64,000 nucleotides of DNA from Pirellulales bacterium (lineage in GTDB: Bacteria > Planctomycetota > Planctomycetia > Pirellulales > PALSA-1355). Positions 34,201 through 37,200 of this stretch are shown here, piece by piece. The stretch spans positions 32,001 through 96,000 of the forward strand of contig CAVTBU010000010.1 of NCBI GenBank assembly GCA_963733035.1, written 5' to 3'. Every line of letters starts with the position of its first letter. The stretch's first letter is position 1. Made by a program: the position numbers.

Positions 34201-37200
34201 CGCCGAACCGTTGGCCACTGGCGATCGCATCAAGACGTTTGCCGAGATCGATGCCCAGAACATTCACCTGGAAATGCCGCCGGTAAAGCTCGACGAGTTG
34301 ATCGGCGAAGGGGACAAGATCCAGGTTGGCAAGCTGGAGTTGGAAGTCTGGCACACGCCGGGACATACCGACAGCCAGCTTTCGTTTCGCATGGGCAACT
34401 TGCTGTTCAGCGGCGACAACATCTATCGCGACGGCTGCGTGGGCGCAATCGATGCCCATCACGGCAGCGACATTCAGGCATTTCTCAAATCGCTCCGTCG
34501 CATTCGCGAGAGCGACGTGGAGTGGCTGCTGCCGAGCCACGGCCCGATCTTCCGCAAGAACAACACGCTCATCGACAAGGCGATCGCCCGGCTGGAAGGT
34601 TACTTGCACATGGCCGACTTCGGCACCTGCGCCATCGACTGGCCCCTGATGGACGAATGGGACAAGGAACTGGAAGCCGGCAAGATGCCCCAATAACGGC
34701 TGCTAGCACGAGTCGACACAGCCGGCCGTCTGCGAAACCCTGCGGGTTCTAGCGGATATTCCCTCAATGCCGCTTGTGACGCGTGCCGATGGATGTTGGT
34801 AGACCCAAGCTGCCGGACGATCGCGGTCCCGTAAATCACGCGACGCCGGTGTGATCGACATTTCTCAGGGGGGAATCTGCGATGGTCCGCCGAATGCTTC
34901 TTGCGCTTTGCTGCGCGGCGGGTTTGAGCGTGCTGGTCTCCGCCGAGGCCCAGGCCCAGCAGCCCATGACCGGGCAGCAGGCTTTTGGCCGGCAATGGGG
35001 AGGCAGCTACAGCACCCAAGACTGGAACCGCTTGTACCACTACCCGTACGTCTACTACCCGCAAAATTTCTGGTCGAGCGAGTACTACCAGAGTTCGAAC
35101 GATCTGTACTTCCGCTATCCGCCCGAAATGCGGATTCCGGTCTACAACAAGCAGTGGATGAACATGTATCCCGAAGGTCGGCTGTATCACTCGGGCCACC
35201 ACTTCATACTCGATACGTTTTGAATTGGCTGAGAATTCTCAGCTTGCGGTGGAACGACAGTCGGGAGGTTGGCCCGAGCGGATGTGACGCCCTTGTCGCG
35301 ATGAAAGCGAACGGAAGCTGGCTTGCGGCAAGCATCCACGAGGGTCGTCGCTTTGCGGCGCCGTAACCGAACTTGCCTGACGTGAAACGGGGTCGGACCG
35401 CCGGAAAGGGGTCTGGAGTCTTGAACTCCCGACCCCTTTATTATTGATCAGGCGAGACCGCGGGCGGCGAAGCGATACAGTGCCTCGCTGGCGGCCTCGA
35501 GGCCGTCGAGCGCGAGCCACTCGTCGGCCGTGTGGGCCTGGGCGATCGAACCCGGCCCAAACACGATGGACGGGACTCCGGCTGCGGAAATGGCCGCGGC
35601 ATCGGTGCCGTAGGGGACGCCGATTTTTTCGCTTTCCAGCCCCATCGACCTCGCCGCCCCTTGCATCGCGTTGGCAAGTTCGCCATTCGTTTCGTCGGGC
35701 AGCCCGACGCCGATCAAGAATGGTGGATCGTGCTGAATCCGCACCTCGCTGCCGACTTCGCGCGAAAGGTAATCGATCACGTGCATGTACGCTGCTTGGG
35801 GTTCTTCGTGCGGCAGCAATCGGCGGTCGATTTCGATCGTGCAGCGGTCCGGCACGGTATTGACGCTCAAACCACCGGTGATCGTGCCCACGCTCAAGGT
35901 GGGCCGCCCGCAGAGCGGATGCTCACCTAGCGTTGGCGCCACGTCGCGCTGATAGCGCTGGAGCGCCGCCAGCACTGGCCCCATGCGAAAGATTGCGTTC
36001 TCGCACAAGTGGGGCTGCGAGCTGTGCCCCGCACGTCCCAGGGCATGGCATCGCCAACGCACCACGCCCTTGTGCGCGACCACGACCTGCAGTTCGGTCG
36101 GTTCGGCGATCACGGCGGCGTCTGGCTGCCGGGGCACGATTGCATCGGGCTCGGACCAGAGCTTGGTGAGTGCCGTGGCGCCCGAGTAGCCATGTTCTTC
36201 GTTTACGGTGCAGGCCATGACGATGGTCGGCATGCCTTTGGGGCGATCGGTGGCCAGCCGGGCCAGGGCGCCAAGCATGGCGGTCATGCCTCCTTTGATG
36301 TCGCAGGCGCCGCGGCCATAGAGGCGGCCTTCTTTCACGACCGGTGTCCACGGCTCGATCGTCATGCCGTCGACCGGAACGGTGTCTTGGTGGGCCTCGA
36401 ACATGATCAGCGGGCCACCGGCCGTGTGCGAAACGGCCCCGTCGAGCCGAGCGATGATGTTGTCGCGTTTCGGTTCGACCGGCTGACGCTGGTAGGGGAG
36501 TTTCAGCGAGCGGAACAGCGATTCGAGGTAGTCAGTTACGCGGTATTCAAAGTACTCGGGCCCAGCCACGGGCTTGCCCATGGGGTTCACGCTTGGCAGT
36601 GCGACCAGTTCGCTGAGCGTCCGGTTTAGATTCAGGGTCATGACTATCTCGGCGGTTCTCGGCTGGGGTATTGGTGGCGGGCCAGTCCGCGGTGGTCATC
36701 ATAGCGGTTGATTGGCGCCAGTTCTCCCCGCATAGCGAACACACCGCCGGCGGCGGCGGGGCAACATCGGCTTTGATGCTCGTGGCCAACAAGCGAGAGC
36801 ATTACCCCGGACGAGCAGGTGCCGGCGGCGATGAGCGGTTTTAGGGCTGCCACACGTCCGCTTGACCGTCTGGTAGGGGCTCGATAGGATCTTTTTTGCG
36901 TCGCGAGCCCAAGCGTGGCCTGAATTTAGGGCGTTTTTAGGCGAGAAGACCCCCAGGCGGGTCTTTTCCTTGGGCTCACTTTGTGACAAGATTCACAAAG
37001 TGCCCTGAATGCCGTAAATTATCGCCATCGTTTACCTGACCCTCAACTCGCACTCCCGCCAAAAGCGCACGCCATGGAACTGGCCGTCCTGCCGATTTTC
37101 CTGTTTGGCGCCGCCGCCATCGGTTTGGCGATCGGGCTGTTGGCAGTCAGTTCGCTGATCGGCCCGCACAAGAACGGGCGCGTGAAGGAAATGCCGTATG

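Follow-up and report, generated by a model that had tools for sequence, protein, structure and literature searches.

A Rex box is conserved ahead of the main respiratory operons and the ATP synthase operon of the planctomycetes studied here, and across genomes the box follows the presence of a rex gene. The explanation that we consider best overall, with a probability of roughly 0.7, is that one Rex protein would control a regulon of respiration and ATP synthesis from operators set in three different geometries. Rex would bind its boxes when NADH/NAD+ is low and leave them when NADH rises. This would tie complex I, a Rieske/cytochrome b-aa3-type oxidase cluster and ATP synthase to redox poise. 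The same would apply to the membrane arm encoded by a second nuo cluster and, in part of the lineages, to menaquinone synthesis.

The window, a stretch of 64,000 nucleotides from a Pirellulales bacterium, includes a complete complex I operon (Table 1). In what follows, G000 is the genome of the window, other G-numbers are genomes of our sample, and f-numbers are families of the order. The initial annotation had placed a canonical Rex palindrome before nuoA, and such a palindrome is indeed found 76 nt ahead of the nuoA ATG. It reads TTGTGA-N6-TCACAA, departs from the Rex consensus TTGTGAA-N4-TTCACAA at a single position, and extends into perfect 10-bp arms (36977-36986 and 36993-37002). Only three sites with at most one mismatch occur in the 6.6-Mb genome, the nuoA box among them; 12 more have two mismatches, and 119 have three.

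Table 1. Features of the nuoA upstream region and the complex I operon, in window positions.
Feature	Position	Strand	Basis or detail
ArgE/DapE-family deacylase gene, divergent from nuoA	35448..36641	-	340 nt away from the Rex box
nuo operon promoter, sigma70-type (predicted)	36862..36890	+	-35 at 36862-36867, 17-bp spacer, -10 at 36885-36890
Predicted nuo start site	~36897	+	from the sigma70-type promoter match
GC-rich RNA hairpin of the nuoA leader (predicted)	36943..36968	+	10-bp stem, 6-nt loop
Interrupted U-tract behind the hairpin	36964..36971	+	begins 17 nt ahead of the Rex box
Putative Rex operator, 18-bp palindrome	36981..36998 (= C10:68981)	.	perfect extended arms, 36977-37002
Second promoter-like match	36992..37020	+	-35 is the right half of the Rex box
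nuoA, complex I operon gene 1	37074..37472	+	NCBIfam NuoA models
nuoA-N operon, complete complex I	37074..51906	+	first gene nuoA
nuoL in two frames	46486-48168 and 48035-48592	+	inside the nuoA-N operon

Conservation of the box was assessed with 120 sampled genomes of the order, from which 90 nuoA upstream regions (a subset of the matches, G000 included) were searched up to 400 nt upstream, with misses counted in the denominators. A box with at most two mismatches was present in 73 of the 90 regions and one with at most three in 80 (shuffles 0.06% and 1%), although the genomes are related and such counts are therefore not independent. The boxes are distributed over 24 of 25 families, and the core positions are unchanging in all 80. 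In a separate set of named records, which carry their depositors' labels and may overlap the order sample, the box also occurs in entries of Isosphaerales/Isosphaeraceae and Gemmataceae; it is absent from two Thermoguttaceae and six Phycisphaerae/Phycisphaerales entries.

Boxes had likewise been claimed for a Rieske supercluster and for the atp operon. Both are present as intergenic sites with two mismatches, at C7:89169 before a Rieske/cytochrome b/cytochrome c/coxII/I/III/IV cluster and at C7:458863 before the atp operon, and the conservation across relatives reported for all three promoters is upheld in the larger sample. The Rieske box is found in 34 of 48 regions at two mismatches or fewer and in 39 at three or fewer (two further regions were dropped as too short), and the corresponding counts for atp are 21 and 53 of 70. 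A scoring matrix trained on relatives outside the family of G000 ranks the nuoA, Rieske and atp sites first genome-wide (29.7, 28.0 and 26.1), as had also been reported; this ranking is partly circular, because the training set consists of orthologues of the same three promoters. Intergenic sites scoring above 20 number nine in the real genome against 0.1 in shuffles.

Other parts of the initial annotation require narrowing. Its secondary sites, which had been examined in this genome alone, were scored in relatives. With a cut-off at a matrix score of at least 16 (shuffles 0%), the internal nuoH site of the second nuo cluster (nuoH2) is conserved in 23 of 30 genomes and the mqnA site is patchy (7/30). 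The site at the cbb3 oxidase is found at one of 21 loci, namely in this genome only, the more distant loci being putative orthologues; it is therefore without conservation support, and we dropped cbb3 as a conserved Rex target. In G000 the sdhA-like gene and the second ATP synthase have no box ahead of them, nor does the second nuo cluster at its head; with the cbb3 site not conserved either, the claim that Rex marks the whole respiratory chain goes too far. The accompanying claim that fermentation is not a target holds for this genome alone, in which five Fe-ADH genes and two Ldh/Mdh genes have no box and PFL was not found in the 92%-complete assembly. Cytochrome bd was likewise not found there. 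Rex autoregulation was rejected, since G000 has no box upstream of rex and only two of 30 rex loci show a match at three mismatches or fewer. The best score among all of these box-less G000 loci, rex included, is 9.2. Further matrix matches in G000 lie at C3:58304, C5:1372967 (an Hsp20 cluster), C6:559113 (RRM/purE) and C7:245476, and two more are next to thioredoxin-like genes (C8:66121 and C8:253268).

With 119 three-mismatch sites in the genome and a cbb3 site that is not conserved, some matches to the consensus may be expected from chance or from an AT-rich promoter background. As an account of the boxes as a whole, however, this can hardly be given any credence, because observed frequencies of 70-97% compare with 0-3% in shuffles and the nuoA core does not vary. 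A chance origin was accordingly ruled out at nuoA, Rieske, atp and nuoH2, a conclusion from which the cbb3 site and the other single-genome matches are exempt.

G000 encodes a single Rex (C5:1091088-1091771). The protein has an N-terminal PF06971 winged-helix domain and a C-terminal PF02629 Rossmann domain, both over cut-off, passes the NCBIfam models NF003993 (252.7 > 217) and NF003992 (244.1 > 226), and matches the Rex chains of Thermus thermophilus and T. aquaticus at E ~5e-50. Residues R61-K62-D63, A109, Y113, G102/G104/G107 and D128 are invariant in eight relatives, and the GxGxxG motif, the RKD recognition helix and the Ala/Tyr contacts to NAD+ are kept. The contacts described for T. aquaticus Rex, with their residue roles, are Lys47, Ala94 and Tyr98 (PMC8063818; here and below, papers are cited for those parts of their text that were available). 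Judged by its domains, family models and contact residues, the Rex of G000 is intact.

Among 71 genomes carrying an orthologous rex, 70 have a nuoA box with at most three mismatches, the exception being G034. Three genomes, G005, G018 and G089, have the gene that normally adjoins rex on an assembled stretch with 1.5 kb of flank, yet no rex; the nuoA and atp boxes are missing in all three, and the Rieske box is missing in both of those tested. Outside the order, in a phylum-wide sample, nuoA loci reach a matrix score of at least 16 in none of 27 cases without Rex and in one of two with Rex. There are 11 box-positive genomes in which rex was not found. Ten of these also lack the neighbour gene, G110 being the eleventh, and the neighbour orthologue (71-92% identity) adjoins rex in five of five rex-positive controls, which points to assembly gaps in the ten. 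The gene adjoining rex is a tandem-repeat gene that breaks assemblies. Two further counter-examples are known: the atp box is missing in five of 49 rex-positive genomes, and the rex-less G005 retains a four-mismatch nuoH2 site (score 18.8). Because this degenerate site overlaps a -10 element, part of the nuoH2 conservation belongs to the -10 element itself.

The TGTGA-N6-TCACA core is common to Crp and Rex sites, and co-occurrence was tested for this reason. Class I activation by Crp takes place from sites at -61.5 or -71.5. If the boxes were Crp/Fnr-family sites, the atp site, centred at -61.5 or -62.5 in 35 of 49 genomes, would be a textbook class I Crp site; the nuoA box has a perfect Crp core, and in some genomes a Crp-family gene is located about 1 kb from rex. 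We nevertheless regard a Crp/Fnr binder as highly improbable. No Crp HTH exceeds the cut-off in G000, a strong match is lacking in 42 of 80 genomes with a nuoA box and 22 of 51 with an atp box, and eight of the ten genomes without a nuoA box do have a strong Crp HTH. In family f18, in which rex is absent or present only as divergent copies, all eight genomes have the Crp HTH and none of seven has the nuoA box. Moreover, the T/A at the outer and the A/T at the inner positions of the Rex consensus are conserved in the boxes, whose flanks read ACT/AGT rather than AAA/TTT. On co-occurrence across genomes, then, Crp/Fnr was rejected as the binder, and Rex is well supported both in that role and as the regulator of a core regulon of respiration and ATP synthase, as the initial annotation had proposed from the palindromes.

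The initial annotation had missed that the boxes take three positions relative to the promoter and that the nuoA box is coupled to a hairpin and U-tract. With respect to the predicted promoters, the box overlaps the promoter or start at Rieske, mqnA and nuoH2, lies downstream at nuoA, and lies upstream at atp. At Rieske the -35 element starts 36-44 bp before the box in 37 of 39 genomes; the box thus covers the predicted start, and repression there would therefore be classical. Read by eye, the mqnA and nuoH2 boxes sit on the start site or the -10 element. We infer ordinary steric repression at these three promoters.

At nuoA, a promoter of the form TTGAC-N16-18-TAnnnT lies upstream of the box in 66 of the 80 box-bearing relatives and puts the start 36-88 nt before the box; this start, like all others given here, is predicted from promoter matches. 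The right half of the box could also be read as the -35 of a second promoter (Table 1). This reading was rejected, as a -10 at that spacing is found in only two of 80 relatives, and the match is specific to this genome and probably incidental.

Between promoter and box, a hairpin followed by a U-tract beginning 13-18 nt ahead of the box occurs in 64 of 80 relatives, against a shuffle rate of 0.7% (18% if only the region of the 5' arm is shuffled), and at none of 29 Rieske or 26 atp boxes. The U-tract alone is present at this position in 71 of 80 genomes. The position of the element follows that of the box: 63 of 65 detected elements lie at -13 to -18 from the box, while their distance to the start varies from 20 to 70 nt. 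In G000, G016, G053 and G080 (family f1), about 45 extra nucleotides separate the start from the hairpin and the spacing to the box is unchanged, which ties the hairpin and U-tract to the box and not to the start. The U-tract is present in 71 of 75 genomes with a distant promoter versus none of five in which the -10 abuts the box, and the complete element is absent from the leaders of all ten genomes without a nuoA box. In the named-record set it accompanies 24 of 42 box-bearing nuoA loci, among them loci from Isosphaeraceae and Gemmataceae entries.

Evidence on the hairpin as an RNA structure is of several kinds. The centroid fold of 36897-36972 contains no other helix, for a whole-leader z of only -0.93. 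A sequence-only alignment of 42 hand-picked nuoA leaders contains 28 double changes in the 7-bp helix, where shuffled controls give 14.1±3.2 (0/500), and the covariation of this helix exceeds that of all slid controls. RNAalifold, run on the sequence-only alignment, recovered the DNA palindrome and not the leader hairpin. The standard terminator scan of the window did not call the hairpin, and Rfam gave no match at E <= 1 for 36600-37150. Pairing with the own arm was clearly better than cross-family pairing in only 33 of 80 leaders. The U-tract is usually interrupted. The divergent orientation of the deacylase gene means that no converging transcript is available to account for the hairpin. 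A GC-rich hairpin followed by a U-rich tract suggests a structure resembling an intrinsic terminator, if a weak one.

Because the nuoA box lies too far beyond the predicted start for initiation to be blocked, Rex would act there as a roadblock to elongating RNA polymerase. With EcoRI-Q111, a protein block of this kind, polymerase comes to a halt some 14 bp short of the binding site (PMC3064811), which would put the stall at nuoA on the weak, interrupted U-tract right behind the GC hairpin. Such a stall would give the weak terminator time to act, and the terminator or pause element would most likely convert stalling into release, forming a repressor-gated attenuator. Alternatively, Rex may hold a paused complex rather than release it, since in the same work release at an interrupted-U terminator fell by 60-70% when a block stood 0-1 bp in front of polymerase (PMC3064811). 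The outcome would be repression either way. The Bacillus subtilis trp leader is similar to the nuoA leader in that a weak interrupted-U terminator is set by a regulator; however, TRAP binds RNA and pushes polymerase forward (PMC3064811), whereas the regulator of nuoA would bind DNA ahead of it.

It is also conceivable, albeit unlikely, that Rex binds the nuoA box while the hairpin and U-tract serve independently of it, as a 5' stabiliser, a constitutive weak terminator or a NusG-type pause setting basal output, and that Rex is a simple roadblock which Mfd may clear. The stem begins 0-8 nt after the predicted start in most genomes, as a 5' stabiliser might, and the tract contains TTNTTT, which we take to be the NusG pause motif, in 43 of 80. 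Roadblocking by Rex without a terminator has been proposed for Streptomyces avermitilis wblE, at +108 to +135 (PMC5355995), and at roadblocks formed by LacI, CcpA and CodY, release is mainly the work of Mfd (PMC4132739, PMC10310618). Against this independence stand the fixed distance to the box combined with a variable distance to the start, and the absence of the element in genomes whose box is missing or overlies the start. The operators of LacI, PurR, GalR, CcpA and CodY lie downstream of the start and halt polymerase, as proposed here for nuoA; in the available text of these studies release is ascribed to Mfd or Rho, with no conserved hairpin and U-tract at fixed spacing and no mention of Rex (PMC10310618, PMC4132739). 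The repressor-gated attenuator that we favour, with its coupling of hairpin to box, may represent a mechanism, so far undescribed, by which a repressor on DNA halts transcription.

The atp box is found upstream of a strong sigma70 promoter, separated from the -35 by 15-19 bp in 44 of 49 genomes, by 6-7 bp in four and by 28 bp in one. Box centres fall between -60.5 and -64.5 in the 44, and nothing lies between the clusters near -51, -62 and -72; the outliers, at -50.5/-51.5 (three lineages) and -72.5, stay on the same helical face. A run of at least five A lies inside the box in 49 of 51 genomes at atp versus none of 80 at nuoA. This helical phasing and the A-run suggest a role for the alpha C-terminal domain of RNA polymerase, through which we infer that Rex, bound some two turns of the helix ahead of the -35, would act. 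In position and phasing the atp box is like class I Crp sites and UP elements; it differs in that its cognate factor is Rex by co-occurrence, which could act there with either sign.

Two signs have therefore to be weighed. Occlusion of an UP-like element by Rex has about an even chance of being correct, and we rate it likelier than class I activation. A degenerate right half with an A-run fits an UP element occluded by Rex, and in the rex-less G005 the A-rich right half is kept and the left half is lost. Streptomyces Rex, moreover, represses atp (PMC5355995), and our literature search found no published direct activation by Rex; the available text of PMC4162614 contained nothing relevant. True class I activation at low NADH, which would set ATP synthase opposite to complex I, is in our judgement less likely than not; in its favour are the narrow range of box centres and the helical face kept by the outliers. 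In family f1 the -10 of a second upstream promoter, identified by eye, directly precedes the atp box, and plain repression is therefore possible in that family; apart from it, another upstream TTGA-type promoter match occurs at only one of 29 boxes. The activation reading departs from our best explanation only at atp and is compatible with the rest. We propose only tentatively, as somewhat less probable than its opposite, the full combination in which Rex gates a weak terminator at nuoA across Pirellulales and some Isosphaerales/Gemmataceae and, in the same cells, works at atp from a class I position via the alpha C-terminal domain, giving three mechanisms and possibly two signs on one respiratory chain.

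The comparative study of Rex regulons by Ravcheev in 2012 reportedly covered 11 groups, with Planctomycetes not among them. In our literature search, from which subscription papers were largely excluded, we found no planctomycete Rex regulon and nothing on point for Rex roadblocks or for intrinsic terminators coupled to roadblocks; the word 'planctomycet' is absent from the available text of RegPrecise 3.0.

Rex control of respiration is already established in Streptomyces, and the planctomycetes are a new lineage for a known system. Rex of S. avermitilis directly represses nuoA1-N1, atpIBEFHAGDC and cydA1B1CD, and in S. avermitilis/S. coelicolor ROP sites are also found at rex-hemACD, ndh2 and wblE (PMC5355995). 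The two systems share the 18-bp consensus, complex I and ATP synthase as targets, and the character of an aerobic-respiration regulon, and the planctomycete protein passes the Rex family models. They belong to different phyla, however, and the oxidase target in planctomycetes is the Rieske/cytochrome b-aa3-type cluster, with no bd oxidase found; 'qcr', 'ctaE' and 'cytochrome c oxidase' are absent from the available text of the Streptomyces paper (PMC5355995). Unlike Streptomyces, with its rex-hemACD site, the planctomycetes have no rex autoregulation. The Streptomyces nuoA1 and atpI boxes overlap the -35 (PMC5355995), whereas the planctomycete boxes lie downstream of the predicted start at nuoA (+37 to +88) and upstream at atp (about -62). 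What is new, and strongly supported by sequence, is this geometry, that is, an operator-coupled hairpin and U-tract at nuoA and a phased upstream box at atp.

For a phylum in which few regulators are known, these results supply a redox regulon that can be tested. As a rule, roadblocking is weak and is attributed to Mfd. If our reading is true, a terminator selected at a fixed spacing before an operator, and kept in 20 or more families, would represent a design of its own. Through the nuoA element it can be asked directly if intrinsic release is helped or hindered by an obstacle in front of polymerase, and through the phased atp box if Rex is able to activate or to work via the alpha C-terminal domain.

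The Rex box at nuoA, a predicted operator of the NADH-sensing repressor Rex (consensus TTGTGAA-N4-TTCACAA), has flanks that are conserved throughout the order, ACT before and AGT after (3 bp per side), and with these flanks the palindrome grows to approximately 24 bp. At atp, a weak inverted element, RYAA-N18-21-TTRY, was observed 15-43 bp upstream of the Rex box at a fixed spacing (locus stretch L006 and the atp loci), and it occurs near the box at 22 of 48 loci compared with 4.75% of shuffles. This element could be the site of a second regulator or an alternative-sigma promoter. 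The cytochrome b of the Rieske/cytochrome b-oxidase cluster is split and b6-like, consisting of a 252-aa protein and a 440-aa ExtQ-like subunit.

The genome under study (G000) also carries a second nuo-like cluster, in the viewed stretch of which nuoEFG were not found, and its predicted Rex box lies at an internal promoter before nuoH, where it overlaps the extended -10. A Rex box is absent at the second ATP synthase operon of this genome. Further intergenic boxes were assigned by their high matrix scores in the G000 sequence alone. The reading frame of nuoL is broken and those of atpB and mqnA look broken as well; these breaks are probably assembly indels rather than biology.

Features of the genome under study (G000) and of relatives (other G-numbers)
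Feature	Position	Description
Cytochrome c and PDZ domain protein	G000:C7:92807-96859 (L005:6808-10860)	1350 aa; within Rieske/b-oxidase cluster
Second nuo-like cluster	G000:C5:388000-400700 (L012, L383)	nuoI, DUF2203, nuoA, C, D, H, J, K, L, M, N
Second ATP synthase operon	G000:C5:1770900-1776900 (L385)	beta-epsilon-first order; a/c reading frame fused
Rex-like box	G000 C3:58304	upstream of unknown 329-aa gene with ABC transporter
Rex-like box	G000 C5:1372967	upstream of three Hsp20 genes
Rex-like box	G000 C6:559113	upstream of RRM/purEK
Rex-like boxes	G000 C8:66121; C8:253268	upstream of two thioredoxin-like genes
Rex-like box	G000 C7:245476	upstream of unknown gene
nuoL	window 46486-48168 and 48035-48592	split over two frames
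atpB	G000:C7:457058-458037	frameshifted look; open frame 217 aa vs ~300 in relatives
mqnA	G000:C5:822706-823434	frameshifted look
rex and tandem-repeat gene	G000:C5:1088334-1091771	divergent pair
Crp/Fnr-family gene near rex	G115:C2:592393-594073; G023:C1:125589-127223; G041:C37; G105:C23; G047:C64; G086:C150	

Across the order, rex forms a divergent pair with the gene of a Cys/Val-rich tandem-repeat protein. Contigs often end at this repeat, which accounts for draft genomes in which rex is missing. In families f23 and f4, several genomes have a Crp/Fnr-family gene located approximately 1 kb downstream of rex.

The rex orthologue of the order is absent from family f18. Copies of a divergent Rex, at 38-43% identity, occur in some of its members, and G092 has three of them. 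The Rex boxes of the respiratory operons are absent from all f18 members; therefore, the divergent Rex of f18 probably controls a regulon different from the respiratory one of the order.
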